Shown: in pieces, positions 34,633 to 63,916 of the stretch
Position numbering within the stretch: the stretch's first letter is position 1
Layout of the letters: each line of letters opens with the position of its first letter
Virus record (IMG/VR): IMGVR_UViG_3300040751_003707
Source: an uncultured virus (IMG/VR IMGVR_UViG_3300040751_003707)
Taxonomy: Duplodnaviria > Heunggongvirae > Uroviricota > Caudoviricetes
Direction: 5' to 3' (one strand)
DNA length: 64,000 bases
The notes under the pieces: model-generated
The model's database searches: none
What the model saw: only the letters and a program-made list of their open reading frames with translations
Told to the model about the DNA's origin: nothing
Position numbers and translations under genes: made by a program

Positions 34633-34722
34633 AAAACTGTATAAAAAAGTGAGAAAATTGATGCATCTATAATGATACAATCATGTATCAGTCAGCAAAT
34701 ATGGAGGACACCATGCTGAACA
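34633..34722 (+). repeat. 90-bp class A repeat copy 1 (promoter-like motif, hairpin, RBS and start codon)
   Basis: Near-identical to 35123-35212; contains GCATCTATAATGA, TGATACA/TGTATCA and GGAGG-ATG. Confidence 0.85.
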
Positions 34723-35060
34723 GTACCATTGAGTACGAGATCACTTCTCATGCAGCGCCGCTGCAGGTTGAGGGGATCATACGTAGCAATGAAGGGGAAA
34801 TCCGCCCCTTCTACTTCTGCAACCGCAATAATTCACTTTATTGCATTGTGGGAAGTCGCTACAAAGAGGATTACTTGAATGACTCAAGTATGACTCGCCG
34901 CACTCTCATAAACGGGATGATGATATATCTTCTCGACTATGATAGTGACGCGTTCTCACTTCGGCAGACGTTATTTGTCGACGAAGATGATTTCTATAAA
35001 GAAATCTCTTTGAGTGAGGCGTTAGAGTTCATTATGATGACACACAAGTTGTCATTGTAA
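34713..35060 (+). CDS. Putative early hypothetical protein
   Basis: GGAGG RBS within the repeat; starts MLNSTIEY. Confidence 0.7.
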   Translation: MLNSTIEYEITSHAAPLQVEGIIRSNEGEIRPFYFCNRNNSLYCIVGSRYKEDYLNDSSMTRRTLINGMMIYLLDYDSDAFSLRQTLFVDEDDFYKEISLSEALEFIMMTHKLSL

Positions 35061-35065
35061 TACTC

Positions 35066-35116
35066 ACACCCTGAGCATGGTGTAAAACTGCTCAATATCA
35101 ATTGTACGGGCTTTGT
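35066..35116 (+). repeat. 51-bp repeat copy 1 containing an H-type pseudoknot
   Basis: ACACC-C-TGAGCA-T-GGTGT-AAAAC-TGCTCA; repeated at 35710-35760. Confidence 0.8.
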
Positions 35117-35122
35117 CTGTAC

Positions 35123-35212
35123 AAAACTGCATCAAAAAGTGAGAAAATTGATGCATCTATAATGATACAATCATGTATCAGTCAGCAACAATGGAGGACA
35201 CCATGCTGAACA
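35123..35212 (+). repeat. 90-bp class A repeat copy 2
   Basis: Offset 490 bp from copy 1. Confidence 0.85.
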
Positions 35213-35457
35213 CTGAAGTGCATAAAGTTCGTTTTAACGTCATCGCTCTTATGAGGGATGGTTCCTATCGAGCTATTCGCTGGATTGGGTACAGCGACGA
35301 AGTTTGTCGCAAGGACGGGTCTTTTGATTCGTACCGCGCAATGGGTGTGTTTTATATAGACACACACCCGGACTCCGCAATCCGCGAAGAGATCACTTCA
35401 GTGATCACTGCAGTGGAGGACACAGAAGATCTTGAAGGAATCGAGTTCTTTCTGTGA
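35203..35457 (+). CDS. Putative early hypothetical protein
   Basis: GGAGG RBS within the repeat; starts MLNTEVHK. Confidence 0.7.
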   Translation: MLNTEVHKVRFNVIALMRDGSYRAIRWIGYSDEVCRKDGSFDSYRAMGVFYIDTHPDSAIREEITSVITAVEDTEDLEGIEFFL

Positions 35458-35465
35458 ACAAAAGT

Positions 35466-35491
35466 GGGGCTGGCTTCGGCTGGCCCCTCTT
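35466..35491 (+). terminator. GC hairpin with TTCG loop
   Basis: GGGGCTGGC-TTCG-GCTGGCCCC; weak T tail. Confidence 0.5.
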
Positions 35492-35515
35492 AACACTTAA
35501 CCCTACCATGAACTA

Positions 35516-35698
35516 ATGGAGAAAACAATGGAAATCTTCTTCACACTGTATGTTATTATCGGTGTTACTCTGCTTTGTGTTCTTAATTGGGAAGCAGCAG
35601 GTTCATTACCCCTCTATATGAAAGTAATTACAACGCTCTTGGTTGCAATATCCGGTGTTCCTGTATTTTATATTTTCTACAAGTTTTGGTATAAGTAG
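35516..35698 (+). CDS. Small two-TM membrane protein
   Basis: Two hydrophobic segments; GGAG RBS nearby. Confidence 0.6.
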   Translation: MEKTMEIFFTLYVIIGVTLLCVLNWEAAGSLPLYMKVITTLLVAISGVPVFYIFYKFWYK

Positions 35699-35709
35699 AT
35701 TAATCAACA

Positions 35710-35760
35710 ACACCCTGAGCATGGTGTAAAACTGCTCAACTTCAATTGTACGGGCTTTGT
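35710..35760 (+). repeat. 51-bp repeat copy 2 (pseudoknot)
   Basis: Offset 644 bp from copy 1. Confidence 0.8.
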
Positions 35761-35781
35761 ATACAAAGAAAGGAGCTAGTT

Positions 35782-36078
35782 ATGTTATCAACTGTTATCA
35801 ACTTACTCATACTTTTGCTTATAGGTCTTTTTATAAGGCTTGGTTGGCATCGTTATACAGACAACAAGGTTTATAAAATAAACGTTTATGTATTATTGTT
35901 TTTACTCGGCTTTGTGCTATTAACAGTTAACATTGTCAGCGTACCCCTTTATTTGGGTTTTTTCTCTGTCGATATTCTTTACTATCTTTCAGCTTATACT
36001 GGTAAGCTAAGAGATTATAAAAGAATCCTCGCCAAATTAATGAGAACTTTACCACAACCAAAAAGGAAAACAAAATGA
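35782..36078 (+). CDS. Small membrane protein
   Basis: AAGGAG RBS; hydrophobic segments and a basic tail. Confidence 0.6.
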   Translation: MLSTVINLLILLLIGLFIRLGWHRYTDNKVYKINVYVLLFLLGFVLLTVNIVSVPLYLGFFSVDILYYLSAYTGKLRDYKRILAKLMRTLPQPKRKTK

Positions 36079-36281
36079 ACAAAGAAGACTACAAAATGTC
36101 TTGGTCAAAGGCGATAGTACTTGGTATATTAGATGCAATACACTTCTTTGCAAAAATTATACTAATGCCTCCGATCTCTGAAGAAGTGCTAAACATGAAC
36201 TCGAGAAGAAACTCTCGAAAGATCAAGAAGCCAGAAAGGAAGAAACAATGCTCAACAAACTCATCATCTTGTCGGCCATAA
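36075..36281 (+). CDS. Hypothetical protein
   Basis: AAGGA RBS; ATGA overlap with the upstream gene. Confidence 0.5.
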   Translation: MNKEDYKMSWSKAIVLGILDAIHFFAKIILMPPISEEVLNMNSRRNSRKIKKPERKKQCSTNSSSCRP

Positions 36282-36418
36282 GTATCATAGCCGTTTATAG
36301 TATAATTTCGCTACTGTTAATTGTTCTTAAATTAGCAGTTGCCTTCTTTTTTACGCTGGTAATTTATATGGTTATTGCTTTTATCATCATACAATTTATA
36401 AATAAAATACTTGTTTAA
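36248..36418 (+). CDS. Small hydrophobic protein, 56 aa (not in the ORF track)
   Basis: AAGGA RBS; MLNKLIILSAISIIAVYSIISLLLIVLK... Confidence 0.5.
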   Translation: MLNKLIILSAISIIAVYSIISLLLIVLKLAVAFFFTLVIYMVIAFIIIQFINKILV

Positions 36419-36588
36419 AAAAGAGTAACAAAATTAATTAATGATTATGACTTTTTCTCTTATATACCTTATGGTTTTCAGAGGAAAAGTTGTCTATGAA
36501 GCCAATAAAAAGAGGTTTAACGCCCAAAAGAAAGTTAAACAAAGCTCTTAAAAGCTTGTCAACAACCCTGAGAAAAGGAAAGACACAC

Positions 36589-36897
36589 ATGTCTATCGTA
36601 CAGAAACTCTTCCGTGGTACCTCTGAGAAAGAAGCTAAAGAACTTGCTTCTGGTAAACAAACTCGTGGAATTACTCACTGGACTGACAGCCTTGAAAAAG
36701 CTGCAATGTATGGTGATGTTGTAATTGAGCTTAGGTTCGAAGAAAAACCAAAGCACCTTGATATGCATCAGCATGTTGCTCTTGGTAACGAAGTTCACGG
36801 TAACATCCGCGAATGGAGAATCCCTAAGCAACTGTTCGAGAAAGACGGCGGTGTTTACTGTTACGCCGAAGAGGAGATTATCCACAACGTAGGGTAA
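36589..36897 (+). CDS. Putative ADP-ribosyltransferase-fold protein
   Basis: AAAGGA RBS; LFRG...THWTDS...A.MYG...EW pattern. Confidence 0.5.
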   Translation: MSIVQKLFRGTSEKEAKELASGKQTRGITHWTDSLEKAAMYGDVVIELRFEEKPKHLDMHQHVALGNEVHGNIREWRIPKQLFEKDGGVYCYAEEEIIHNVG

Positions 36898-36919
36898 TCC
36901 TCTGATAAAATCAAAACGG

Positions 36920-36948
36920 AAAAGGGCTGGTTTAAATTGGCCCTTTTT
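36920..36948 (+). terminator. Intrinsic terminator
   Basis: AAAAGGGCTGG-tttaaa-TTGGCCCTTTTT. Confidence 0.65.
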
Positions 36949-36973
36949 ACTCTGTAAATCCCCTACAAGGAAC

Positions 36974-37261
36974 ATGAAAATGACAACCAGTACAGAACAG
37001 CTACTAAAAGAAGTACTCGATAAAATTATTGAAGAAAAAGTTGATGAATACCTCAATAAGTATCTATCGAGCGATATTGAGGAAGTAGTTGAGAAAAATA
37101 TCGAAGAGCACCTATCACAAAATAACTACGCGACCTTAAAGGATGTAGATGAGGTAATTGAGGAGTTCATAAATAACGATTTTGATCAAATAGCGCAGGA
37201 GTATCTTTCTCGTAGCGTACTAACAATAAAAGTAGAGGACATCTCCAAATGTTACGTGTAA
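36974..37261 (+). CDS. Acidic helical hypothetical protein
   Basis: AAGGA RBS; D/E-rich. Confidence 0.6.
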   Translation: MKMTTSTEQLLKEVLDKIIEEKVDEYLNKYLSSDIEEVVEKNIEEHLSQNNYATLKDVDEVIEEFINNDFDQIAQEYLSRSVLTIKVEDISKCYV

Positions 37262-37512
37262 ACATGGACGTGATATTAGACGAAAATACAGATAAGGAGA
37301 AGTATTTTGATCTAGAAATCTGGGGGAGAGTTTATGAAGGAGGTTCTACAAGATGGGGTAGTGATGAACCCCCTTGGGCTGAAGTAGAGATCAGTGAGAT
37401 ATATGACTTGTTTACAAACGAGGAGTTATCAACAGAAGACTGGAACCGAATTGTCGATGAATACGGCAATAAAATCGATGAGCTTCTAATCGAAGCAAAT
37501 CAAACTATCTAA
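37249..37512 (+). CDS. Acidic hypothetical protein
   Basis: GAGG RBS; D/E-rich. Confidence 0.6.
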   Translation: MLRVNMDVILDENTDKEKYFDLEIWGRVYEGGSTRWGSDEPPWAEVEISEIYDLFTNEELSTEDWNRIVDEYGNKIDELLIEANQTI

Positions 37513-37538
37513 CAAAACTCAAACAGCAGGAGCTAACT

Positions 37539-38126
37539 ATGAGCAATAACTACAAAACCCTAACGGAACTGAATGTAAAGGCCGGTGATGTTGTCCTTTT
37601 CAATAGCAATGTGGAATATAGAATTTGGGGTTGGATTGGAGATAAGGTTTATAAAACCAAACATAAACACTCACTTGAACGAGGAGAGACTCTTTCTAAA
37701 GATATTGTTGGTTGGGAAATTGTTTCCCGTCGTCTTCGTATTGAAGAGGGAAAATATTACCGAGATGAAAATGGGAATTGTGTAGGACCGATGGTTGGTG
37801 ATACTTTTAAATGGGTTGCGGGTAAAAGCTCAATAACAGATCCAGATTGGACAAATTGGGGAGAAGGAACTACTAAACACACACCTAATCTTGTTGCTGA
37901 ATGGGACTTTGATAACGTAAACACAGAAAACTTTATCAAAGAAATGTCTTACAAAAAGATCTTGGAAGGGCGGTATAATACTACTGAAATCGTAGAAAGT
38001 AACCCAACTTCTGTGTGGATTCGCATAGACAACCTACTTACCGAGAAAGAACTACGAGAAACTTCAACAGTGTTGAATTCTCTTGCAGATGCAATCTGTT
38101 ATAACAGAAATAACAGCAACCTCTAA
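37539..38126 (+). CDS. Hypothetical protein
   Basis: AGGAG RBS; IEEGKYYR...VGP motif shared with the 58370 protein. Confidence 0.65.
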   Translation: MSNNYKTLTELNVKAGDVVLFNSNVEYRIWGWIGDKVYKTKHKHSLERGETLSKDIVGWEIVSRRLRIEEGKYYRDENGNCVGPMVGDTFKWVAGKSSITDPDWTNWGEGTTKHTPNLVAEWDFDNVNTENFIKEMSYKKILEGRYNTTEIVESNPTSVWIRIDNLLTEKELRETSTVLNSLADAICYNRNNSNL

Positions 38127-38146
38127 CAAACCTGAAAGGAAGCAAA

Positions 38147-38545
38147 ATGCTTACTTCTGCTGCACTCTGTCTTGCCCTGAACATCTTCTTTGAGGCAAGA
38201 GATGAACCCTTTCTTGGCCAGCTCATGGTCGCGGAAGTAACACTCAACCGGGTTGAACATCGCAGTTACCCCGATAACATCTGCGATGTTGTCTGGCAAC
38301 GCAGGCAATTCAGCTGGACTCATGATGGTCTTTCTGATAATCCAGAAGATTACCCTTATCTTGACAGAGAAGCATGGGGTGAAATCCTTGTACTGACAAC
38401 AAGAATCTTGAACGGAGAACAAGAACTACCAAACAATGAAGCAATCATGTTTCATGCAGACTATGTTCTACCTTATTGGGTAGATCACTATGAACAAGTA
38501 GGGATGGTCGGTGGACATATTTTCTACGGAGAACGAGGAGAGTAA
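38147..38545 (+). CDS. SleB-like cell wall hydrolase (Hydrolase_2)
   Basis: CLALNIFFEARDE, V.LNRV, ICDVVWQRRQFSW and GGHIFY motifs. Confidence 0.92.
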   Translation: MLTSAALCLALNIFFEARDEPFLGQLMVAEVTLNRVEHRSYPDNICDVVWQRRQFSWTHDGLSDNPEDYPYLDREAWGEILVLTTRILNGEQELPNNEAIMFHADYVLPYWVDHYEQVGMVGGHIFYGERGE

Positions 38546-38546
38546 A

Positions 38547-38729
38547 ATGGAAGATGTCGAAACAAGGGTAGAAGTTGTACTAAATAGTGGAGTTACAGAA
38601 AAATTTTGGTATACTCATATGGTTGAAGATTCTGGGTTTTTAAAATTCTTTACAAAAAAAGGAACTGAATACTTGTTTCAAAAAGATTGTGTAATGATGA
38701 TGGTTGTTTACCATACGCGAGATAACTGA
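38547..38729 (+). CDS. Hypothetical protein
   Basis: GAGGAG RBS before ATG (MEDVETRV). Confidence 0.5.
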   Translation: MEDVETRVEVVLNSGVTEKFWYTHMVEDSGFLKFFTKKGTEYLFQKDCVMMMVVYHTRDN

Positions 38730-38778
38730 GTAAATCCTCGCATCTATAACCCTAACAGCACTGTAAGGAGAAAACAAC

Positions 38779-39072
38779 ATGCTGGTACGCGTCTCTTTCG
38801 AAAATGGTTCCACCCTTACGATCGACTCTTCTCTTGTTGATCTTTACTTCCCAATGACAGCAAGAATCAAAAGTATGTATGTTATCGAAGATACAAAAAT
38901 CAACAAAGAAACCCGCCTTGAGAACAACAGTTTCTCTTCTCTTGTTGGTGCTATTGATGCAATTCATAGCCATACGTACGAAGACCCTGATGTGTATGAT
39001 CATATGACAGACGACCTTGAAGCTTACTTCGATGAGCTTCTAAATCAAGAAGGTGATCACTACTACCCTTAA
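38779..39072 (+). CDS. Hypothetical protein
   Basis: AAGGAG RBS. Confidence 0.6.
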   Translation: MLVRVSFENGSTLTIDSSLVDLYFPMTARIKSMYVIEDTKINKETRLENNSFSSLVGAIDAIHSHTYEDPDVYDHMTDDLEAYFDELLNQEGDHYYP

Positions 39073-39099
39073 TCTCAACTTCAAAACAAGGAAAGCAAA

Positions 39100-39294
39100 A
39101 TGCTGGTAAAGCCCAAAACAACCTACGAAGCTATAAACAACTCTGGTGTAACAATTGAGGATGCTGTCGAATCAATCATGCAAATGCATCCAGAAGAAGA
39201 TGAGATAATGGTCTGGCACAATATCAATAATCACAACAGTCATTACTGTAAAACAGGCGAGACTTATATCTACATCAGAGATGAGTTGATGTAA
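39100..39294 (+). CDS. Hypothetical protein
   Basis: AAGGA RBS. Confidence 0.55.
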   Translation: MLVKPKTTYEAINNSGVTIEDAVESIMQMHPEEDEIMVWHNINNHNSHYCKTGETYIYIRDELM

Positions 39295-39309
39295 GCTATA
39301 CATAGATTA

Positions 39310-39357
39310 GCCCGCCCCTTCGGGGGCGGGTTTTACTTCAACCTTTTTTTTTTTTTT
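39310..39357 (+). terminator. Strong terminator hairpin plus T14 tract directly before the RNAP gene
   Basis: GCCCGCCCC-TTCG-GGGGCGGGT-TTT; T14 at 39344-39357. Confidence 0.8.
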
Positions 39358-39379
39358 GTTATAAAGGAGACCTCACTTA

Positions 39380-41572
39380 ATGACAAAAACTCCGTTAGAA
39401 GAGTTAACAGAAGACTTAAAACATAGACAAACTTATTTGTTTTCTCAGTCGGGTAGTGTGGATAAACGTAAAAAGGCTTGGAAAATTGCTAATATAGAAG
39501 CACTAGATATCATAGAGCTTACTTATGGTCATGTCCTTACCGGTATTGAAAAGAGAACTTCTCTTGCCACTGTTGTTGCAAATATTGGTAAATCTATAAA
39601 CAGAAAGTATAAACTATCCGCAGACCCTGTCGAAGAAGCGCATATCGGCTGGTTTGTTATGTTATCTTACTTCGAAATGAACTATATCAGTTATGTGGCA
39701 AAACACCTGAAGAAAGCTAATGGTCGTAAATCTAAATACCCAACCTATCAGATAGTTGTAAAAAACGTTGACGCTATTAATCAGATATTAACACTTGTAA
39801 ACAAAGATAAGGTAGATCTCTTTCCAAACTCAGAACCGCCGGGTGACTGGACAGAGGGTTTTACTCATAAGAAAACAGGTTATCCTTTAATCAAGAATGC
39901 ACCTAAAGAAACAATTGATCTTCTGAAATATGAAAATCTGGATTATGTTAAATCGGCCTTGAATAAGCTAAACAACACCGGCTGGCGGATAAACAAAGAT
40001 GTATTCTTAGTGTTTAAAAAGTGTATGTACAATGAGAAAACACCTTTCAAGTTTCACAAGGAAATTGATCCTGTTAAAAAAGCTTCTTTGTTAATTGAAG
40101 TAAACGCAATTGTGGGTATTGCAGAAAGGAATCTCAACAATGCATTCTATCATCTCTATAACCTTGATTTTCGCGGTAGAATTTATCCAAATACTGCCTT
40201 TCTACATGAACAATCCTCGGACAATGCTAAAGGCTTACTTCTCTTAGACCAGCCTGTATTGCTAGGAGAACAAGGTACTTACTGGTTATTTGTACACACT
40301 GCAAACGTACTTGGTCAAGACAAATTAGAACTAGATGAAAGGGTTAACTATGTAGAAAGTATTATAGATGACATAATCGGTTATGCAGAAGATCCCCTTG
40401 TAAACACAGGGTGGATGGATGCAGATAAACCTTTTAGTTTTCTTGCAGCTTGTTATGAAATTTACAAACTATTAGGATGGTGTAATGCAGGATACCCGCC
40501 AGAGGAATTCCCCTCTTGCTTACCAATCTATATCGACGGGAGTAACAACGGGGTTCAACACCTTGTTGCAATGTCCAAAGATCATGAAGTTGCCCCGTTG
40601 GTTAACTTGGTTCAGAGCAAACTTCCCGGCGATGTTTACATGTATATCGCTGAACACGTTATGGAGAAAATTGAAAAACGTTCTAAACTGTTAAAACAAG
40701 AGGATGTTGATAAATTTGAACCGTTGTTTAATGAATACGTTTCACTGCTGAGGGAGATTGAAAAATGGCCTGAAAAATCAGAAAAGAAAAAACTTGCAAA
40801 AGCAGCAATGCTAGAGTTCAAGAACCATAACTATGATCTCCGAGAGAAACTATTCCCTATCTATTGGAATAAAATCAAAGATAAAAAGGTATGGAGAAAG
40901 ATACTTAAAAGAAATGTTATGACATTGGCTTACGGAGGTACTCGTCAAGGCATGGGTGCTCAGATTGTTGATGACACAAGGGATCTCAGCGAGTATCTAA
41001 GAGACAAAGAAGTAAAGTGGGGCTATATGCTGGGTAGCCTTGCTTATGATACATGCTATGAAAGACTCCCCGGACCAGCCAGCATGTTAGAAATGTTTCA
41101 GAGCCTTGCTATCAGAGAAAACAAAGAAAACAGACACCTTGAATACCGAGTGCCAGTTACTAACTTCCCCTTCCGGCATAACTACCGAAAGCCACTTGCA
41201 AAGGAGATAAGCTTTTACTACGGTGAAGAGCGTATCCGGGTTACACTGAGTATCTGGCAAGAAGCAACACTTGACAAGAACAGTCAAAAAACAGGTGCTG
41301 CACCTAACGTAGTTCATAGCCTTGATGCTGCTCATTTGACAAGTGTAATACACGACACAGACTATCCTGTAACAGTTGTTCATGACTCTTTCGGGTGTCA
41401 TGCTGGAAACATGGATAAACTGTTTTATGATGTACGGAAGAAGTTTGTAGAACTCTACGAACAAGAACCACTAGAGTTCATCATGAAACAACTTAACTCA
41501 GAAGACTTGATTCCAAAGAAAGGGCTACTAGATGTCAAAACAGTACTTGAATCAGATTTCGCATTTGCATAA
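39380..41572 (+). CDS. T7-like single-subunit DNA-directed RNA polymerase
   Basis: LDFRGRIY, motif A IDGSNNGVQH, motif B RKILKRNVMTLAYG, PNVVHSLDA, motif C VHDSF, C-terminal FAFA. Confidence 0.96.
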   Translation: MTKTPLEELTEDLKHRQTYLFSQSGSVDKRKKAWKIANIEALDIIELTYGHVLTGIEKRTSLATVVANIGKSINRKYKLSADPVEEAHIGWFVMLSYFEMNYISYVAKHLKKANGRKSKYPTYQIVVKNVDAINQILTLVNKDKVDLFPNSEPPGDWTEGFTHKKTGYPLIKNAPKETIDLLKYENLDYVKSALNKLNNTGWRINKDVFLVFKKCMYNEKTPFKFHKEIDPVKKASLLIEVNAIVGIAERNLNNAFYHLYNLDFRGRIYPNTAFLHEQSSDNAKGLLLLDQPVLLGEQGTYWLFVHTANVLGQDKLELDERVNYVESIIDDIIGYAEDPLVNTGWMDADKPFSFLAACYEIYKLLGWCNAGYPPEEFPSCLPIYIDGSNNGVQHLVAMSKDHEVAPLVNLVQSKLPGDVYMYIAEHVMEKIEKRSKLLKQEDVDKFEPLFNEYVSLLREIEKWPEKSEKKKLAKAAMLEFKNHNYDLREKLFPIYWNKIKDKKVWRKILKRNVMTLAYGGTRQGMGAQIVDDTRDLSEYLRDKEVKWGYMLGSLAYDTCYERLPGPASMLEMFQSLAIRENKENRHLEYRVPVTNFPFRHNYRKPLAKEISFYYGEERIRVTLSIWQEATLDKNSQKTGAAPNVVHSLDAAHLTSVIHDTDYPVTVVHDSFGCHAGNMDKLFYDVRKKFVELYEQEPLEFIMKQLNSEDLIPKKGLLDVKTVLESDFAFA

Positions 41573-41786
41573 TGTAGGCTCAGAGTTTTTAATAAGCGGT
41601 CCAAACATTCAAGATAACACACACATCGAAATTATTGAGATTTGGAAAGATAATCACAATGAGTTAGAGGCGCTTGGCGTGTTAGCAACGGAACCGGGTC
41701 TGGAAGAAGGGACTTACTATGGTGAGATCTACATCGATGACAACCGTTTTGTAGTCGAGAAGATCGTCAAAGCTGTTGAAAACTAA
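41532..41786 (+). CDS. Hypothetical protein (start uncertain)
   Basis: Fills the gap between RNAP and the next promoter; overlaps the RNAP 3' end. Confidence 0.35.
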   Translation: MSKQYLNQISHLHNVGSEFLISGPNIQDNTHIEIIEIWKDNHNELEALGVLATEPGLEEGTYYGEIYIDDNRFVVEKIVKAVEN

Positions 41787-41791
41787 CAGAG

Positions 41792-41812
41792 AAAAATACT
41801 TCCGACTAATGA
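41792..41812 (+). promoter_or_regulatory. Class B promoter copy 3 (upstream of SSB)
   Basis: Exact 21-mer, followed by CCAAAGGTC and an AT-rich tract. Confidence 0.8.
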
Positions 41813-41925
41813 CCAAAGGTCGAGAAGATCATATATAATATAATATATTTATATATGAATTAATTATATTAACAAAAACTAAACAAATAAATAAAATACT
41901 TATGAAACCAAGAGGAATATTATAA

Positions 41926-42531
41926 ATGGCTATTATTGAAAACGCTGAAATCTTTTTTGCTAAACTTGACCCAGCTCGTCCTGCGAAAATGTTTAACAAA
42001 CCAATCCCGGCGTGGAGTGTGCAAATTCGCACCTCTGATCCAGCTCAGGCAAAAGAGTGGAAGAAACTTAATGTTAATGTCAAGCCACTTAAGCGCAAGA
42101 AGAAAGACGAACAAGGTAATGTAATTGAAGACGATTTCGGTGAGGCACAATATGAGCCTGTACTAGACGAAAACGGTAAGCAGTATTACGGTTGCAGTCT
42201 AAACAAGCCTTCCAAAAAGCGTGATGGAACAGACAACAAACCTGTAAATGTAGTTGGTGGTGATCTTTCAGACGTAGATCCAACAAAGATTGGTAACGGT
42301 TCTGTCGGTAATGTACGTGTGTATCAGTACGAGTACAGTGTAGATGGTAATGAAGGTATTGCATCAATGCTTATGGCAATTCAAATTACTTTTCTCAAAG
42401 AGTTTGAGCCTAAGCCGCTAGAAGATGCTTTCGAAACTACAACCTTCAAAGTAGAAAAGGTTGCAGACAATCAAGACAACTCTATGATGAGTTCAAACAA
42501 CGATCTCGATGACGACGAGATTCCTTTCTAA
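41926..42531 (+). CDS. ssb: Single-stranded DNA-binding protein (T7 gp2.5-like)
   Basis: IGNGSVGNV, LMAIQI and acidic C-terminus DDDEIPF. Confidence 0.8.
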   Translation: MAIIENAEIFFAKLDPARPAKMFNKPIPAWSVQIRTSDPAQAKEWKKLNVNVKPLKRKKKDEQGNVIEDDFGEAQYEPVLDENGKQYYGCSLNKPSKKRDGTDNKPVNVVGGDLSDVDPTKIGNGSVGNVRVYQYEYSVDGNEGIASMLMAIQITFLKEFEPKPLEDAFETTTFKVEKVADNQDNSMMSSNNDLDDDEIPF

Positions 42532-42545
42532 TTGTAGATAACTTT

Positions 42546-42585
42546 GGGGCAGTAAATTGTTTAATACTTTTTACTGTCCCCTTTT
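42546..42585 (+). terminator. Intrinsic terminator
   Basis: GGGGCAGTAAA...TTTACTGTCCCC followed by TTTT. Confidence 0.65.
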
Positions 42586-42603
42586 AATTAAAGGTTAAAT
42601 AAG

Positions 42604-42795
42604 ATGGTACTTAATCAATATGAAATGAACAACTGGGAACTACTAGAAGATCTGTTTGAGGAGAGGGCTGCTATTATTGAGTATGATGGTGGTTTTTCTA
42701 CTTATGAAGCAGAACAGATGGCAGCTCAAGCCCTCGGGTTTGATAACAAGTTTGATTTTAAGTCACATATCCAAGAACTAAAGGCTTTCGCATAA
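42604..42795 (+). CDS. Hypothetical protein
   Basis: FEERAAIIEYDGG....AE motif common in phage proteins. Confidence 0.65.
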   Translation: MVLNQYEMNNWELLEDLFEERAAIIEYDGGFSTYEAEQMAAQALGFDNKFDFKSHIQELKAFA

Positions 42796-43367
42796 TGACC
42801 GATCGAATTATTAAACGTCTAGCAATTGAATCAAGAGGTTACACACCTTACGCCGCAGCCTTTTGGAAAGTACCTCCGGAAGAGTTGAAAGGAGAGAAGG
42901 AGTTTCATGTTTTAACTTATAACGAGCATAACGATACTTACTGTGAGCACATCTACCAATCAGCCGCATATTGGGGTGAATACTCAACAGTTGTTGGCTA
43001 TGCCATCCCCGAACAAGAAAACAAAACTGATGATAATGATGATGACTTAGATGTTATTATTAATCCAGACCACTACAGGACAATCCCTGCTGGTAATTAT
43101 CCCAATGGTATTCAGTACATGGGTATTGTTGCATTCTTGCTTACAAAGAAGCAAAATGCTTTAGATCACTATGAAGCTCATATGTACTCTCAGATTATGA
43201 AGTATTCACTTCGTTTGGGAGAAAAAGACAAAACTCTTCAAGACATGAAGAAAATTAAATGGTATGTAGACCTCTTTATCCTTTATAACGAAGTAAAACT
43301 CGGCAATAAAGATTTAAGGGATTTTGTAGCACAATGGGAAATTGTAAACAAAAAGGTAGAAGATTAA
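42795..43367 (+). CDS. DUF3310-like (T7 gp1.7-like) protein
   Basis: INPDHY and MKY..R.G.K....QDMKKIKWY motifs. Confidence 0.65.
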   Translation: MTDRIIKRLAIESRGYTPYAAAFWKVPPEELKGEKEFHVLTYNEHNDTYCEHIYQSAAYWGEYSTVVGYAIPEQENKTDDNDDDLDVIINPDHYRTIPAGNYPNGIQYMGIVAFLLTKKQNALDHYEAHMYSQIMKYSLRLGEKDKTLQDMKKIKWYVDLFILYNEVKLGNKDLRDFVAQWEIVNKKVED

Positions 43368-43591
43368 TGTCAGATCAGAATATCAAATACGCTAGGGCTA
43401 GTCTAGAAGAAGCAAGAGATTCTATTCAAAAAACAATCCATCATCTTGAAGGGACAAGTGCTTTCGAATCAAACAGACTAGACAGAGTTTATATCGCCCT
43501 TATTGACTGTCAGCATGAAATTATTGATATCTTGAATGAAGATGTAGAAGACCCTTATAACTACCCAGATTTTGTTGATGGAGACATCTGA
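43367..43591 (+). CDS. Hypothetical protein
   Basis: TAATG coupled start (MSDQNIK). Confidence 0.55.
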   Translation: MSDQNIKYARASLEEARDSIQKTIHHLEGTSAFESNRLDRVYIALIDCQHEIIDILNEDVEDPYNYPDFVDGDI

Positions 43592-43593
43592 TA

Positions 43594-48036: not shown

Positions 48037-48238
48037 AATTATTGATCGTGTTGAATGCTACGGTAAACTATGCGATGATTCAAACTTTGTTATTGTATGT
48101 GATGATGAGTACTACGATGCAATTTGGTGTGAAGGAAACCCATACAGTGAAGACGGTACTTTTAGCTCTTGGCGGGAGGTTGTTAAAGCATTGAAAGAGC
48201 GTTATCGCACTGATATTATTGAAATTTCTGCTGTATAA
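48023..48238 (+). CDS. Hypothetical protein
   Basis: Coupled ORF that ends at a promoter copy. Confidence 0.5.
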   Translation: MMNVKIIDRVECYGKLCDDSNFVIVCDDEYYDAIWCEGNPYSEDGTFSSWREVVKALKERYRTDIIEISAV

Positions 48239-48257
48239 AAATACTTCCGACTAAAGA
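48237..48257 (+). promoter_or_regulatory. Class B promoter copy 4 (1 mismatch)
   Basis: AAAAATACTTCCGACTAAAGA upstream of the exonuclease. Confidence 0.75.
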
Positions 48258-51868: not shown

Positions 51869-53746
51869 ATGCTACTAGATAACTATCAATCTTTTATCCA
51901 TTTATCTAGATACTCTAGGTTTATGGAAGAAGAAAACCGTCGAGAAACTTTTGAAGAAACGATCAGTCGATACGTTAACTTCTGGCGTAACAACAAAAAT
52001 TTGTCAAATATCATTTCTAAAGAAGAGTTTGACGAGCTACAAAAAGCAATTAATAACCTTGAAGTCATGCCCTCTATGCGAGCACTATGGAGTGCAGGTG
52101 ATGCTCTTGCACAGAACAACTTCAGAGGTTATAACTGTAGCTTTGTAGCAATGGATCATATCCGTGCCTTTGATGAAATTCTCTACATTCTTATGGCGGG
52201 TACAGGCGTAGGGTTCTCAGCTGAATCGCACCACGTTAACAAGCTACCGATTGTAAATGATAACTTTAATGAAACTGACAGAGTAATCACTATCGGTGAC
52301 AGTTCAGAGGGTTGGGCAAAAGCTCTTCGGAAGCTTATTGCAGAGCTTTACCTTGGTAACATCCACCAATGGGATTACAGCAAAATCCGTCCTGAAGGTG
52401 CAAGACTTAAGACAATGGGTGGTAGAGCTTCAGGTCCAGAACCGCTTAAAGACTTGTTCGAGTTTGTAACAAACAAATTTAGGAAAGCTGCTGGTAGAAA
52501 GCTAACTCCGATCGAAGTGCATGACATTGTTTGTAAGATTGCAGAAATTGTTGTTGTAGGTGGTGTTCGCCGTTCAGCGCTTATTTCCCTTTCTGATATT
52601 GGTGATGCAGAGATCCGTGATTGCAAAAGCGGAAGTTGGTTTAAAACAGAACTACAACGTGCTCTTGCCAATAACTCCGGCGCTTACGATTCAAAACCAA
52701 CCATGGCTGTGTTTATGGAAGAGTGGATTGCTCTTATGAAGTCTGGCTCTGGTGAACGCGGCATTTATAATCGAAATGGTGCTCAGGCAATGGCCCCTGC
52801 ACGCCGAGACGGTTCTAAAATTGAAGGTTGTAACCCTTGCGCAGAGATTCAACTACGGTCTGGTCAGCTTTGTAACTTAACTGAAGTTGTCTGTAGACCC
52901 GGTGATACCCTTGGTGATCTGAAACGTAAAGTCCGAATTGCAACTATCCTTGGTACACTTCAGTCAACTCTTACTGACTTTAAGTATGTACGCAAGATCT
53001 GGCAAACTAACTGTGAAGAGGAACGGCTACTTGGTGTTTCACTTACTGGTATTCAAGATTGTGAGCTTCTTCAGAATCCCGACCCAGAACACTTAGAGGC
53101 TCTTAAGGAAGTAGCTATTGATGTGAATAAGGTTTATGCAGAACGGCTTGGGATTAATCCAGCTACAGCAATCACAACTGTTAAACCTTCTGGTACTGTA
53201 TCTCAGCTTGTTGATTCTGCTTCTGGTATTCATGGTCGCTTTTCTAAGCACTATATCCGTGCTGTAAGACAAGCAAATTCAGACCCGCTTACACAAATGC
53301 TAATCGATCAAGGTGTACCACATGAACCGGATGTGACAAACCCACTTAAGACGACTGTATTTTACTTCCCAATCAGTTCTCCTGATTCTGCTGTTCTAGC
53401 TAATGAGCAAGGTGCTATTAAGCAACTAGAGAACTGGAAAATTTTCCAAAAACATTGGTCTGAACATTCTGTTTCTGTAACCATCTACGTAAAAGAACAT
53501 GAGTGGCTGTCTGTGGGGGCGTGGGTATACGAAAACTTCGAGTATATCACAGGGGTATCGTTCTTACCTTATGATGACCACGTATATGCTCAGGCACCAT
53601 ACTCACCGTGTAATGAAAGGAAATATCGTGCTGTTCTTGAAGCAATGCCATCAATCGACTTCTCAAAACTTTCAGATTACGAGCATGAAGACAATACTGA
53701 AGGTGCGCAAACCCTTGCATGTTCTGCCGGTGGTTGTGAGATTTAA
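51869..53746 (+). CDS. nrdJ: Class II (B12-dependent) ribonucleotide reductase
   Basis: YNCSF, GGVRRSA, NPCAEI, CNLTEV, VKPSGTVS and C-terminal CSAGGCEI; no beta subunit gene seen in the window. Confidence 0.9.
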   Translation: MLLDNYQSFIHLSRYSRFMEEENRRETFEETISRYVNFWRNNKNLSNIISKEEFDELQKAINNLEVMPSMRALWSAGDALAQNNFRGYNCSFVAMDHIRAFDEILYILMAGTGVGFSAESHHVNKLPIVNDNFNETDRVITIGDSSEGWAKALRKLIAELYLGNIHQWDYSKIRPEGARLKTMGGRASGPEPLKDLFEFVTNKFRKAAGRKLTPIEVHDIVCKIAEIVVVGGVRRSALISLSDIGDAEIRDCKSGSWFKTELQRALANNSGAYDSKPTMAVFMEEWIALMKSGSGERGIYNRNGAQAMAPARRDGSKIEGCNPCAEIQLRSGQLCNLTEVVCRPGDTLGDLKRKVRIATILGTLQSTLTDFKYVRKIWQTNCEEERLLGVSLTGIQDCELLQNPDPEHLEALKEVAIDVNKVYAERLGINPATAITTVKPSGTVSQLVDSASGIHGRFSKHYIRAVRQANSDPLTQMLIDQGVPHEPDVTNPLKTTVFYFPISSPDSAVLANEQGAIKQLENWKIFQKHWSEHSVSVTIYVKEHEWLSVGAWVYENFEYITGVSFLPYDDHVYAQAPYSPCNERKYRAVLEAMPSIDFSKLSDYEHEDNTEGAQTLACSAGGCEI

Positions 53747-53758
53747 GGAGCATCTATA

Positions 53759-53878
53759 ATGAACAAGAAAAGTAACAAAGTAATCTTTAGTAGTTCCCGT
53801 AAACGAACCTCTATCGGCGGTAACAAGCGTAAAACATCTTCCATGAATAAACATAAACGGAGGATGTCTAAGGGATGA
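53759..53878 (+). CDS. Small basic protein, 39 aa (not in the ORF track)
   Basis: AAGGAG RBS; MNKKSNKVIFSSSRKRTSIGGNKRKTSSMNKHKRRMSKG. Confidence 0.55.
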   Translation: MNKKSNKVIFSSSRKRTSIGGNKRKTSSMNKHKRRMSKG

Positions 53879-55647: not shown

Positions 55648-55977
55648 ATGAAAAAACTACTGATGTCCCTTGTTATGGCTGCAACTGTATTCTCTTGCGC
55701 ACCAAGCTATGCACAAGAAGAAGACCAGCTTTGCACAATGCTTGGCGCTGCGGCTAATCAGATTATGACTGATCGTCAAGAAGGAGTCCCGATGGATTCT
55801 CAACTGGCTAGGGTAGACGCTGTTTCACTGAACAGCCCTACTGCTCGTTCGCTTCTATATACCCTTGTAATTACGGCCTATCAGGTTCCGCGTGTTGTTA
55901 CAAGGGAAGATCAAGCTGAAGTTTCTCTTCAATTTCAAGAACTTGTAGAAGAAACTTGTTTTGGGGAAGTGTCATAA
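55648..55977 (+). CDS. Secreted or periplasmic hypothetical protein
   Basis: Signal peptide MKKLLMSLVMAATVFS..SYA; C...A..IM..RQ.G...C pattern. Confidence 0.65.
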   Translation: MKKLLMSLVMAATVFSCAPSYAQEEDQLCTMLGAAANQIMTDRQEGVPMDSQLARVDAVSLNSPTARSLLYTLVITAYQVPRVVTREDQAEVSLQFQELVEETCFGEVS

Positions 55978-55997
55978 AAAACACTTCCGACTAATGA
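55977..55997 (+). promoter_or_regulatory. Class B promoter copy 5 (1 mismatch), upstream of HNH and tRNAs
   Basis: AAAAACACTTCCGACTAATGA followed by CCAAAGGTC. Confidence 0.75.
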
Positions 55998-56517: not shown

Positions 56518-56600
56518 GCCAGTATGGTGAAATTGGTAAACACAGGGGACTTAAAATCCCCCGCGAAAGCTTGTCGGTTCAAGTCCGACTACTGGCACCA
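56518..56600 (+). tRNA. tRNA-Leu(TAA)
   Basis: GCCAGTA/TACTGGC acceptor, GGGGA-CTTAAAA-TCCCC, variable arm, GTTCAAGTC T loop, CCA. Confidence 0.93.
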
Positions 56601-56605
56601 ATTAT

Positions 56606-56680
56606 GCTCTTGTGGTGTAACGGTAACACTCACCGCTCATAACGGTTGCGCTACAGGTTCGAATCCTGTCGGGAGCACCA
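56606..56680 (+). tRNA. tRNA with CAT anticodon (elongator Met or Ile2)
   Basis: GCTCTTG/CGGGAGC acceptor, ACCG-CTCATAA-CGGT, GGTTCGAATCC, CCA; G1:C72 pair argues against an initiator. Confidence 0.88.
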
Positions 56681-60605: not shown

Positions 60606-60622
60606 AAATAGGAATATCTGAT

Positions 60623-61439: not shown

Positions 61440-62366
61440 ATGTCTGAATTTAAAAAATACATGCACCTTGAACGGCTAAAGACAACACCTGTTATCGGTA
61501 TTACAGAAGGCACTGTTTATGTGTTTCCGAAGCTAGATGGGACAAACGCACAGGTCTTCTATGACAGTGATCACCCCACTCTTATCGGTTGCGGGTCTCG
61601 TAACCGTAAACTAGAAGAGGGGAACGATAACGCCGGATTTATGAATTGGGCTATCAAGCAAGACAATTTGAAAGCCTTCGTAAAGGATCATCCAAACCTT
61701 ATCCTATACGGTGAATGGCTTGTCCCTCATTCCCTGAAGACTTACAGAGATGATGCATGGAGAAAGCTCTATATCTTCGATGTCTACGACACAAAACAGG
61801 AGAAGCTTCTGCACTTTGAAGAATATAAACACACTCTTAAAGAGTACGAAACAGAAGAAACAATCCTCCTTCATCCTTTTGCAATCGTAAAGACCAATGA
61901 TGTAGATCATTTTTATAGTCTTCTGGAACACAATACATATGCTATCAAAGAAGGTGAAGGACATGGAGAAGGTATTGTGCTTAAAAACTACGAATACAAA
62001 AACAGGTTTGGTAATCAAATCTGGGCGAAGCTTGTGTCATCTTCTTTTAAAGAAGACTTCGTAAAAGCAATGGGGCCAATTATGATTACAGACAAGAAGG
62101 AGGCTGTAGAGTATAAGATTGTAAATAAGTATGTCACTCAAGAACTTGTTGATAAAGCTTATGCAAAGATCAACCTCATTGAAGATGAAGGGTTTACCTC
62201 TCGCTCCATCCCTCGCTTACTCACCACAGTCTACTATGATTTAATCCTTGAGGAGACATGGGAGTTCCTGAAAGAACATAAACAACCAACAATTGATTTT
62301 AAACTTCTTCAGAACCTTACAATCGCCCGAATCAAGAAACTACGTCCAGATATTTTCGGTCAATAA
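61440..62366 (+). CDS. RNA ligase (Rnl2-like nucleotidyltransferase)
   Basis: Motif I KLDGTN, YGEW, IFDV, EGIVLK and WAK. Confidence 0.85.
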   Translation: MSEFKKYMHLERLKTTPVIGITEGTVYVFPKLDGTNAQVFYDSDHPTLIGCGSRNRKLEEGNDNAGFMNWAIKQDNLKAFVKDHPNLILYGEWLVPHSLKTYRDDAWRKLYIFDVYDTKQEKLLHFEEYKHTLKEYETEETILLHPFAIVKTNDVDHFYSLLEHNTYAIKEGEGHGEGIVLKNYEYKNRFGNQIWAKLVSSSFKEDFVKAMGPIMITDKKEAVEYKIVNKYVTQELVDKAYAKINLIEDEGFTSRSIPRLLTTVYYDLILEETWEFLKEHKQPTIDFKLLQNLTIARIKKLRPDIFGQ

Positions 62367-62378
62367 TCTAATAAGGGA

Positions 62379-62615
62379 ATGACTATGAAATTCGAGTATG
62401 AAGAACAAAAAGACTCAACACCACTTCCTGTTGCATTTATTGATACAGACGGTGACCTGATCTTTAACTGCGCTAACGACGCTAATAATAGTTTAGTTTT
62501 TATTAACAAAAACGGGTATGGAGATTCCTCAAATAATATTGACTTCGAAGAGCATCTCAAAGAACGCAGTGTAAAGAGCTTTTACAAAGGCGATAAACTA
62601 ACTATTACGTTTTAA
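62379..62615 (+). CDS. Hypothetical protein, tandem paralog 1
   Basis: IDTDGDLIFNC...FYKGDKLTITF. Confidence 0.65.
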   Translation: MTMKFEYEEQKDSTPLPVAFIDTDGDLIFNCANDANNSLVFINKNGYGDSSNNIDFEEHLKERSVKSFYKGDKLTITF

Positions 62616-62625
62616 AGGGAAAGAT

Positions 62626-62880
62626 ATGCTTAGCTTTGAATACACTAAACAAAATAAAGATAAAAAAGTTATTGCTGTAATTGACTGTGATGGTGATCTC
62701 ATCTTCAACTGTAAAGACAGAGATAATGCCTGTATTGTCTTAGATCGTAACACTATGGAGTGCTATGAGGAGCCATACCTCAACATTGATAAAATGATTA
62801 TGCAGGGAGTTGAGAAGGTCTTCTATGAAGGCGAATCTGTAACACTACACTTCGGGAATAAGGATAAAATTAATGCCTAA
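62626..62880 (+). CDS. Hypothetical protein, tandem paralog 2
   Basis: IDCDGDLIFNC...FYEGESVTLHF. Confidence 0.65.
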   Translation: MLSFEYTKQNKDKKVIAVIDCDGDLIFNCKDRDNACIVLDRNTMECYEEPYLNIDKMIMQGVEKVFYEGESVTLHFGNKDKINA

Positions 62881-63130
62881 TTTTGATAAGCTGATGGAAG
62901 AGAAGCAGGAACCAACTAAAGAGCCGATTGCAATCCTTGGTTACATGTCAGGCTATAAAAACAGGTTTTTCCTTGCAATTAAAACAGATAATCCAGAAAA
63001 ATATATCTGGCTTTATAGTGGTTACTCAAACAGTAATATCACTGTTCAGAGTTGTTCATTCAGGGACATTTCTGAAGAAAATATCATCCGTAAGTTCTAC
63101 GAAGGTGATGAAATAACCTTCACACTCTGA
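62873..63130 (+). CDS. Hypothetical protein, tandem paralog 3
   Basis: PIAIL...KFYEGDEITFTL. Confidence 0.6.
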   Translation: MPNFDKLMEEKQEPTKEPIAILGYMSGYKNRFFLAIKTDNPEKYIWLYSGYSNSNITVQSCSFRDISEENIIRKFYEGDEITFTL

Positions 63131-63146
63131 TAACATACAAATACAC

Positions 63147-63257
63147 ACCCACATACACTCAGTCTATACATGTTTACTTTATATCTCCTTTAAAAAGGGG
63201 GTGTGAGGTAGATGTGTATAGATTGGGTGTATGTGGGTCTTATTTTTTTTTTTTTTT
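63147..63257 (+). other. 44-bp RNA hairpin (10 G.U pairs, no other mismatches) followed by T15
   Basis: 63147-63190 pairs with 63195-63238; loop TAAA; T15 at 63243-63257. Confidence 0.85.
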
Positions 63258-63286
63258 ACATATACAGATAAGGATACACAAATACA

Positions 63287-63883
63287 ATGAAAGAATGTTT
63301 TGATAAATCACTCAGTGAAGTTCTTAAGTATGAAGGTGGGTTCTCAAACCATCCAAGTGATACCGGTGGAGCCACTAACAAAGGAATTACTATCGGCACC
63401 TATCGACGTTATAAAGGGAGTGCATCAGTAACAGTAGATCAGCTTAAGAACATCACAGAAGACGAAGTAAGGGATATCTATAAGAAACTCTATTGGGATA
63501 AAGTCCGTGGGGATGAACTACCACCGGGACTTGACTTCTTGACCTTTAACATGGCAGTTAATGGAGGTCCATCCAGAGGTGTTAAACTACTACAATCCTC
63601 TCTTGGTGGGCTTGATGTTGATGGCATTATCGGACCAAACACTATGAGAAAAGCTTGGCTCACTTACCTTGAACCAAGGGATAACAGCATTGTAACTGTA
63701 TTCGATGAGTTTGAATCAGACACTAATGACTTCTACACAGGAATTGTAGAAAGAAATAGAAGTCAATCAGCCTTTATCCGGGGGTGGATTAACAGATCTC
63801 ATGCTGCTTGTACCTTTGCTAAGGATCTTCTCTTATGGTTTGATGAAGAATATGATGTAAGTGGGTATGAAAAATACCTATGA
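63287..63883 (+). CDS. Glycoside hydrolase family 108 endolysin
   Basis: EGGFSNHPSDTGGATNKGIT, YKKLYW, VDGIIGPNT and F..GW.NR motifs. Confidence 0.92.
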   Translation: MKECFDKSLSEVLKYEGGFSNHPSDTGGATNKGITIGTYRRYKGSASVTVDQLKNITEDEVRDIYKKLYWDKVRGDELPPGLDFLTFNMAVNGGPSRGVKLLQSSLGGLDVDGIIGPNTMRKAWLTYLEPRDNSIVTVFDEFESDTNDFYTGIVERNRSQSAFIRGWINRSHAACTFAKDLLLWFDEEYDVSGYEKYL

Positions 63884-63895
63884 AAATAAGGGGGT

Positions 63896-63916
63896 AAAAA
63901 TACTTCCGACTAATGA
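63896..63916 (+). promoter_or_regulatory. Class B promoter copy 6
   Basis: Exact AAAAATACTTCCGACTAATGA. Confidence 0.8.

Follow-up and report, generated by a model that had tools for sequence, protein, structure and literature searches.

How a phage that encodes two RNA polymerases (RNAPs) of its own divides its genes between them is the question raised by the uncultured virus record IMGVR_UViG_3300040751_003707 (IMG/VR), of which a stretch of 64,000 nucleotides, hereafter the window, was analysed. One polymerase, RNAP2, is a stand-alone protein, while the other is fused to a MuF head-docking domain and its gene is interrupted by a group I intron. Two classes of repeated motifs, A and B, are scattered between the genes. 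A first-pass annotation of the sequence had proposed a self-contained cascade, in which the MuF-fused polymerase, injected with the DNA, reads class A to express early genes and RNAP2 then reads class B. Our analysis favours, as the probable reading of the sequence data, such a two-step, phage-owned relay between the virion MuF polymerase on class A and RNAP2 on class B. The window covers the larger part of a Naomiviridae-like siphophage genome. Its closest named phages are the roseophages DSS3_VP1 and DSS3_PM1 (Naomiviridae, Noahvirus), with RNAP2 47.7% and the MuF-polymerase ~58% identical, and the gene order is common to the three. Further relatives, mostly IMG/VR contigs, were collected via their RNAP2 loci; a search with the first exon of the MuF-polymerase gave two loci, one of them identical to the window.

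The stand-alone enzyme lies where the first-pass annotation had placed it, and both Pfam (RNA_pol PF00940, E = 4.9e-73) and alignment to T7 RNAP from the PDB (E = 8e-54) bear out its T7-like nature. Motifs A, B, C and T/DxxGR are all aligned, the residues facing those of T7 RNAP being FRGRIY, DGSNNGVQH, KRNVMTLAYGG and VVHDSFG, and the C-terminal ESDFAFA aligns with the terminal FAFA of the T7 enzyme. RNAP2 thus looks like an intact T7-type polymerase, catalytically whole as far as its motifs tell. Identity to its counterparts in DSS3_VP1 and the IMG/VR contigs is 48-67%. The segment aligned to T7 residues 739-770 is the equivalent of the specificity loop. Mean pairwise identity is 0.36 within this loop and 0.51 over the full length of the protein, and the residues on either side of the loop hardly vary. 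The loops group as the class B cores do (see below): those of the window and of contig L008 are near-identical, those of the G002 group are similar, and those of different groups differ.

The second polymerase is encoded directly downstream of a portal-like ORF (15723-17306, DUF4055). Pfam analysis of the MuF protein reports Phage_Mu_F (PF04233, E = 1.7e-14) at residues 134-238; on the unspliced ORF (17331-21164) the MuF domain is the only hit, and ORF 21940-22947 matches RNA_pol with E = 6.3e-5. Rfam identifies a group I intron between them (RF00028; 67.2 bits, the gathering score being 50; E = 7e-15), although the Rfam 5' limit (21028) is ~100 nt too far upstream. The homing endonuclease encoded within the intron corresponds to phrog_655 (E = 2e-40, PHROGs). 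The exon junction, 21128|21967, was placed by alignment to the uninterrupted 1463-residue DSS3_VP1 protein and to that of contig G005. The last base of exon 1 is T and the last base of the intron is G, and the joined product ..NMVHFYG|AGEATK reproduces ..FYGAGEATK of G005. Since the junction falls at FYG|AGEAT, the intron sits in motif B, and its splicing is, as read from this alignment, needed to encode the polymerase from motif B onward.

The predicted spliced protein comprises 1592 residues, with an N-terminal MuF domain of the SPP1 gp7 type and a C-terminal polymerase. Its motifs DSRGRVYHRG, ENDASSSGAQI, KAQNMVHFYG|AGEAT and TIHDAFF occur in colinear order and are invariant in four lineages. 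With phmmer, exon 2 matches T7 RNAP residues 721-846, IHDAFF included (E = 6.7e-4), while the polymerase part of exon 1 alone returned no match in the PDB at E ≤ 1, so that a profile and a fold search were needed for it. For a five-sequence profile of the MuF-polymerase, the match to T7 RNAP (E = 0.0056) consists of three colinear segments that correspond to T/DxxGR, motif A and motif C, each of them weak by itself. The polymerase part was modelled with AF2 from the uninterrupted relative G005 (pLDDT 58, pTM 0.47). Foldseek returns T7 RNAP 3e2e_A as the best match of this model (E = 3.8e-14, TM 0.35/0.43 over ~970 columns), and all the listed matches down to rank 50 are T7 or mitochondrial single-subunit RNAPs. 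The protein is devoid of the C-terminal FAFA and ends in ..DWYGIGP in all six aligned sequences. From these motifs and the modelled fold, it looks like a very divergent T7-type polymerase that is catalytically whole. BLASTP between the two window enzymes detects no similarity (best E 0.23 and 0.49); by this measure they are not recent copies of each other. Conservation of the specificity-loop equivalent is also of another kind, as this segment is conserved above its surroundings in the MuF-polymerase (0.63 vs 0.53 for the C-terminal 330 residues). The fusion is common: at least 206 protein clusters were retrieved at E 1e-5, and among the 120 listed, 83 combine the two Pfam families, under the names of head morphogenesis or minor capsid proteins in the source databases.

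Several observations concern interruptions of the two polymerase genes. In the MuF-polymerase, motif A is immediately preceded by an in-frame insertion of 135 residues (20454-20849), which G005, G002 and DSS3_VP1 lack; this insertion has no Pfam or PHROG match and is covered by one database protein, P0002 (1591 residues). Eighteen database relatives of 1129-1170 residues carry the MuF Pfam family only, as if cut at the same place as the intron. In EBPR siphovirus 1, the MuF-polymerase homologue is split around an HNH gene (gp47, gp48, gp49). Within the 50 kb analysed of this distant phage's partial record, no class A core, class B frame or RNAP2 was found; given its distance and incompleteness, it weighs neither for nor against the relay. 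The RNAP2 homologue of G009, the contig behind L090, is in two pieces ~700 nt apart (51517-54412) with a stop codon inside the second, and the gap may be another polymerase-gene insertion or intron.

Class B is the 21-mer AAAAATACTTCCGACTAATGA. A scan allowing up to three mismatches returns six matches, all on the + strand, and none in 100 shuffled sequences; these are the six positions listed in the first-pass annotation. That annotation had also seen no copy in the 34.6-41.6 kb region, and there is indeed none between 15582 and 41792. A generic search for repeated 16-mers was dominated by coding repeats. Aligned on their final GA, the repeated motifs of the relatives all fit the frame AATA-N8-TAAW-GA. 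This frame has 32 matches on the + strand and none on the - strand of 14 sequences, some of which are near-duplicates; five of the 32 have off-lineage cores and look like chance. The eight-nucleotide core differs between lineages (Table 1). The positions are kept as well: the window, like G005, G002 and DSS3_VP1, has a tandem pair ~110 nt apart ahead of the portal gene, and the copy ~200 nt 3' of RNAP2 (copy 3 in the window) is syntenic in five relatives. The layout is that of a T7-type promoter, with an A/T-rich block at -17 to -13, the core, a TA-rich segment at -4 to -1 and a purine start. Because of this geometry, the + strand location at gene ends, the core that tracks the RNAP2 loop and the syntenic positions, class B was assigned to RNAP2, which in all likelihood reads it as its promoter.

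The surroundings of the class B copies display other features. Between the tandem copies, a two-hairpin element (GACAG..CTGACAGTCYTC, then a variable hairpin and a U-run) is kept in three lineages (L042 7689-7782; L038 10207-10301 on the - strand), with compensatory changes in 10 of 26 pairs among the three sequences compared; it could be a ~90-nt RNA made from class B copy 1, or the terminator of the lysis operon. At 15470-15722 and 41792-41925, phage promoter(s) are followed by a tract of 113-120 nt with 82-83% A+T. The primary replication origin of T7 consists of two tandem promoters followed by an AT-rich region, and the tandem class B pair with its AT-rich tract may be likened to this arrangement. 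The word ATAAAATACT occurs at 15635, 36402 and 41891, always on the + strand in AT-rich intergenic DNA (0.52 copies expected; one of 100 shuffles reaches three). This word is similar to the 5' half of class B, and two sigma-70-like matches have it as their -10 element.

Class A opens the 34.6-41.6 kb region, as the first-pass annotation had noted, with two strong copies heading a block of small genes. Its core GCATCTATAATGA has three exact copies on the + strand (34663, 35153 and 53750), a count that the expectation of 2.4 copies does not test, since that figure was computed for up to two mismatches. The exact copy at 53750 and a degenerate one at 38716 are additions to what the annotation had noted. 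Copies 1 and 2 lie inside a 90-nt direct repeat that is 96% identical (34633-34722 and 35123-35212). A weight matrix, for which 22 sites of relatives and none of the window served as the training set, recovers all four sites (scores in Table 1), the best score in 20 shuffles being 7.3 bits. In its extended form, class A consists of an A-tract, [G/C]TG[A/G]G, ~11 nt and TCTATAAYGA; the latter has 35 matches on the + strand and none on the - strand of 15 sequences, three of the 35 being without the upstream signature. The A-run and the TAATGA ending said to be common to classes A and B are both present in the window.

The strict 20-base form of class A was retrieved from 91 IMG/VR stretches. Five long contigs, selected because they carry this strict form, all contain RNAP2, and four of them the MuF-polymerase, the fifth ending before the place of that gene. 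In DSS3_VP1, class A is found directly after the tape-measure gene (35809, 36256), as in the window. It also stands upstream of RNAP2 in G005, G002, L009, L011/L012, L013, L014/L016, L017 and L018, at a distance of 0.6-2.2 kb in six of these relatives (G005, G002, L009, L013, L017, L018). A hairpin follows copy 1 (-5.5 kcal/mol, z -4.3). Among 76 distinct class A sites, 53 have a perfect stem of at least 5 bp whose outermost base lies at -2 to 0 from the G after TATAAT, as compared with a mean of 0.86 and a maximum of three in shuffles. The stems are 5-7 bp long and co-vary (GATAC/GTATC, GATATA/TATATC, GATAGA/TCTATC, GATAAA/TTTATC). The stem could act in the DNA, as does the promoter hairpin of phage N4. 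Taken together, class A is very probably a promoter. The genes behind copies 1 and 2 (34683-35060 and 35173-35457) share their 5' leader and first codons, and their translation more likely begins at the ATG that follows GGAGGA than at the one within the hairpin.

The pairing of class A with the MuF-fused enzyme, together with packaging and injection of this enzyme, is proposed on indirect evidence: the conserved loop fits a conserved motif, no -35 box is present, the MuF domain is encoded next to the portal gene, and the Pelagibacter phage Kolga possesses an RNAP2 homologue and a MuF protein without polymerase, and has no class A core. On this basis, we regard reading of class A by the MuF-fused enzyme as fairly probable. 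The sequences themselves show the features, their conservation and their co-variation, and the start sites, the enzyme-motif pairing, packaging, injection and independence from the host polymerase are what we infer. The 1592-residue protein would be made late from the spliced mRNA, packaged in the head via its portal-docking domain and leave with the DNA. It would then start transcription at the class A sites heading the small-gene block after the tape-measure and HNH genes, and the transcripts would cover the early genes, RNAP2 included. RNAP2 would in turn recognise class B through AATA at -16 to -13, the 8-nt core and TAAT at -4 to -1, with the G of GA as the likely start. Class B would thereby drive the genes for replication and nucleotide metabolism, those for lysis, terminase and tail, and the operon from portal to tape measure. 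The MuF-polymerase gene lies inside this class B-driven operon, and therefore the loop would close for the next infection. The phage gene programme may thus need little or no help from the host polymerase.

A number of observations weigh against this relay. A hairpin and a T14 run (39344-39357) intervene between the nearest class A-like site and the RNAP2 gene, so that expression of this gene from class A needs read-through or another promoter; a T-run recurs upstream of RNAP2 in the seven relatives compared. The N-terminus of RNAP2 and alignment columns 470-500 vary more than its loop, and the co-variation of this loop with the class B core rests on six lineages. The AT-rich spacers after class B copies 2 and 3 hold sigma-70-like matches (e.g. 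41869-41897, 10/12), and for this reason the host polymerase may contribute. In 42 of the 76 sites, the class A hairpin reaches as far as the T at -1, and because of this a DNA hairpin or a start at -1/-2 fits as well as a 5' stem in the RNA; moreover, 21 of the 76 sites form a subtype mostly without stem (present in 3/21). The sub-variants GCATC and CCCTC of class A both occur in one contig, L009, so that class A variants cannot be tied to variants of the enzyme. Kolga is a single distant genome, the AF2 model of the G005 polymerase part is of low confidence, and every comparative count is inflated, as all sequences are related by shared descent. As to the first-pass proposal, the pairing of class B with RNAP2 is well supported and the promoter-type nature of class A supported, and nothing found contradicts the relay. 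Its term self-contained goes beyond the evidence, in view of the strong hairpin and T-run directly before RNAP2 and of the sigma-70-like matches in the AT-rich spacers; nor did the proposal mention the intron that has to be spliced out of the MuF-polymerase gene.

The foremost alternative, which we hold to be unlikely, is that class A is read by the host RNA polymerase, driven by the -10 element with the help of the A-rich upstream element or of an extra factor, and that RNAP2 follows as in the T7 scheme; the MuF-fused polymerase would then do something else, such as priming replication or transcribing, late, a subset of genes. The window copies do have a perfect TATAAT, the sigma-70 -10 hexamer, and an A-tract upstream, and in T7-like phages it is the host enzyme that makes the phage polymerase. 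However, there is no -35 hexamer at 16-18 nt, its position being occupied by AAAAGT. A sigma-70 consensus scan of 33-43 kb called 22 sites against 25.2 expected, hence no enrichment, and none of them is a class A site; a host sigma promoter was one of the outcomes that the first-pass annotation had named as fatal to its cascade. Conservation extends beyond the hexamer, to the TC before it, the GA after it and the spaced [G/C]TG[A/G]G, across lineages of 38-47% G+C. The hexamer itself loses its last T in some lineages, that of G002 among them (TATAAC). The co-varying stem starts at the end of the hexamer, and a sigma-70 start ~7 nt downstream would cut it. Lastly, Kolga, which is without the fusion, is also without the motif.

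Two other explanations are less probable still. In one, held at a very low probability, the assignment is swapped or shared, RNAP2 also reading class A or the MuF polymerase reading class B. The segment TAATGA from -4 to +2, common to both classes in the window, would suit it, but the endings differ in DSS3_VP1 (class A ..TATAATGA, class B ..GTTAAAGA) and in G002 (class A ..TATAACGA, class B ..AATAATGA). Variable loop and variable motif go together for RNAP2, as do conserved loop and conserved motif for the MuF enzyme. Moreover, the RNAP2 gene lies 3' of class A and 5' of the first class B copy in the replication block, a location that suits the relay. The other, which we rate lowest of all, takes one or both motifs as terminators, RNA-processing sites or regulator-binding sites instead of promoters. 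Each class B copy directly adjoins the stop codon of the gene before it, and hairpins with a U-run follow the first tandem copy. Against this, class B fits the geometry of a T7-type promoter position by position (A/T-rich block, variable core, TAAW before GA), and the copy at 48237 is only 20 nt from the next start codon with a ribosome-binding site between. The motifs themselves are not inverted repeats, and strand-specific motifs heading gene blocks are the usual signature of phage promoters.

Table 1. Polymerase genes, motif copies and associated elements of the window, and class B cores of the window and its relatives.
Feature	Position	Strand	Description
Class B copy 1	15470..15490	+	exact; overlaps the stop codon of the CHAP lysis gene; first of the tandem pair
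Two-hairpin element	15489..15581	+	between the tandem class B copies; -36.6 kcal/mol, z -6.1; second hairpin followed by a U-run
Class B copy 2	15582..15602	+	exact; followed by a 120-nt spacer (83% A+T) and the portal gene (15723)
MuF-polymerase exon 1	17331..21128	+	MuF domain (residues 134-238), N-terminal part of the polymerase, T/DxxGR, motif A, start of motif B (..FYG)
Group I intron	21129..21966	+	838 nt; Rfam RF00028; carries the homing-endonuclease ORF 21316-21933
MuF-polymerase exon 2	21967..22947	+	rest of motif B, specificity-loop equivalent, motif C (IHDAFF)
Intrinsic-terminator-like hairpin and T-run	34589..34612	+	closes the structural operon just before class A copy 1
Class A copy 1	34639..34681	+	core 34663-34675; 40.7 bits; hairpin starts at the G after TATAAT
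Class A copy 2	35129..35171	+	core 35153-35165; 40.8 bits; same hairpin as copy 1
Degenerate class A-like site	38716..38758	+	CTGAGT..GCATCTATAACCC; 14.9 bits (moderate); 620 nt upstream of RNAP2
Hairpin and T14 run	39309..39357	+	-21.7 kcal/mol; 22 nt before the RNAP2 start codon
RNAP2	39380..41572	+	stand-alone compact T7-type RNA polymerase, 730 residues
Class B copy 3	41792..41812	+	exact; followed by a spacer of 82% A+T and the Gp2.5-like single-stranded DNA-binding protein (SSB) gene (41926)
Class B copy 4	48237..48257	+	one mismatch; 20 nt before the 5'-3' exonuclease gene
Class A-like site	53726..53768	+	GTGAGA-N8-GCATCTATAATGA; 8.7 bits (marginal); overlaps the end of the ribonucleotide reductase gene
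Class B copy 5	55977..55997	+	one mismatch; precedes ORF 56069 and two tRNA genes
Class B copy 6	63896..63916	+	exact; after the GH108 lysis gene; a transcript would extend beyond the window
Class B core, window			CTTCCGAC
Class B core, L008			CTGCCGAC
Class B core, G005			CTTCGCCC
Class B core, L009 and L017			CCCGCAAA
Class B core, G002, L011, L013			GGGCGGAA
Class B core, DSS3_VP1			GGGTGCGT, with TAAAGA

The window has a G+C content of 38%, and its + strand carries all the long ORFs. Pfam analysis reports PhoH, tail, lysis and portal-like genes, the MuF protein, a tape-measure protein of 2067 residues, an HNH gene, the small-gene block, devoid of matches, and the T7-type RNA polymerase. 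The replication and nucleotide-metabolism block encodes a family A DNA polymerase, endonuclease VII, a 5'-3' exonuclease, a primase-helicase, ribonucleotide reductase, a dCMP-deaminase-family protein (54138-54545), an RNA ligase and the GH108 lysin. Two tRNA genes, Leu(TAA) and Met(CAT), are located at 56518-56680, downstream of class B copy 5. T14-T15 runs are found just upstream of both RNAP2 and the GH108 lysin gene (63243-63257), and T-runs are also frequent in EBPR siphovirus 1. PHROGs analysis of 14 ORFs of the early block returned neither a host-polymerase inhibitor nor a sigma-like match. A 15-kb fragment (G001) is near-identical to the window and of no comparative value. The runs X2 and X3, recorded as RNA, contain fractions of 0.81 and 0.77 of the sampled words of 34000-43999, which shows presence of the sequence and not its transcription. 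No link to dU-DNA emerged: the annotated deoxycytidylate deaminase and phosphoesterase ORFs of DSS3_VP1, presumably its two dU-DNA enzymes, gave no tblastn match in the window at E ≤ 1e-3, and the phage is present in ordinary DNA runs.

If the relay holds, it would provide a transcription model for Naomiviridae-like phages, and at least 206 database proteins named "head morphogenesis protein" would be flagged as polymerases. It would also yield two new compact polymerase-promoter pairs that are orthogonal to each other, and natural specificity variants in the form of six class B cores, each matched to one of six loop variants. A wider reading is that widespread marine and estuarine siphophages (at least 206 clusters) transcribe their whole genome without the host RNA polymerase by means of two unrelated-looking single-subunit polymerases, the capsid-delivered MuF enzyme reading a near-unchanged promoter and the early-made enzyme co-evolving with a fast-changing one. 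We put forward this joint reading tentatively, its chances being a little short of even. The relay, if true, would add a third way of starting phage transcription with an own enzyme, the two others being the giant virion polymerase of N4 and, in jumbo and crAss-like phages, multisubunit polymerases carried in the virion. It would also be the first of these systems to rely on the MuF head-docking module that is common among long-tailed phages.

Among known systems, DSS3_VP1 and DSS3_PM1 have the same class A element as the window and a class B-type motif of their own, but their MuF-polymerase gene is uninterrupted (1463 residues in DSS3_VP1) and that of the window is split by the intron. Naomiviridae-like phages are described as abundant but poorly sampled in one report (PMC12669031), and transcription is not dealt with in the portions seen of this report and of a second one (PMC12697855). 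The main text of the Naomiviridae family paper, taken without its supplements, never mentions RNA polymerase, RNAP, such promoters, MuF or virion. With T7 and the Autographiviridae (gene 1 RNAP, 23-bp promoters), RNAP2 shares the catalytic motifs and the FAFA end, and class B shares the promoter layout; RNAP2 is shorter, with 730 residues and a shortened N-terminal domain. T7 possesses one polymerase and relies on the host RNAP for its early genes, whereas the window belongs to a siphovirus whose head module encodes a further polymerase.

In the jumbo phages phiKZ and AR9/PBS2, a virion enzyme acts early and a non-virion enzyme later, both independently of the host polymerase. Virion and non-virion multisubunit RNAPs (msRNAPs) of jumbo phages are described in a further source (PMC12390700). 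The relay would be the single-subunit counterpart of these pairs; the jumbo-phage RNAPs are multisubunit β/β'-like enzymes, of a fold unrelated to the single-subunit enzymes of the window. Regarding the carrier, MuF fusions are reported to combine an N-terminal head-docking domain with an enzyme that presumably enters the host along with the DNA (PMC5512222). The fusions named in the passages covered are toxins, ADP-ribosyltransferases (ARTs), primases and N4-type RNAP modules, with no MuF-T7-type RNAP fusion among them. According to the same source, virion RNAPs of the N4 kind are confined to N4-like phages, and nearly all of them are fused to a metallopeptidase domain (PMC5512222). In the literature covered, subscription papers and supplements being outside its scope, neither a MuF-T7-type RNAP fusion nor a siphophage with two single-subunit polymerases is described.

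The logic of the relay is closest to that of coliphage N4, from which it differs in carrier domain, size, virion type and late-gene control. In N4 (Schitoviridae), transcription passes from the virion RNAP gp50 to RNAPII (gp15/gp16) and then to the host RNAP. The N4 virion RNAP is a podovirus protein of ~3500 residues with its own injection and encapsidation regions. Here, the carrier would be the MuF domain, in a siphovirus and in a protein of 1592 residues, without a giant polyprotein of the N4 type with its central mini-vRNAP or a metallopeptidase-type C-terminal region. N4 RNAPII is a heterodimer and the late genes of N4 use the host RNAP, whereas RNAP2 is one chain and class B also precedes late genes. 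The early promoter region of N4 is linked to a short hairpin; next to class A, a stem is present in most sites, but one subtype is mostly without it. If true, the relay would show that a T7-type polymerase can be injected in another way than in N4, and independently of it. What the two would share is a virion-carried polymerase of the T7 superfamily that serves the early genes, and after it another phage polymerase, itself synthesised early (in part PMC5512222).

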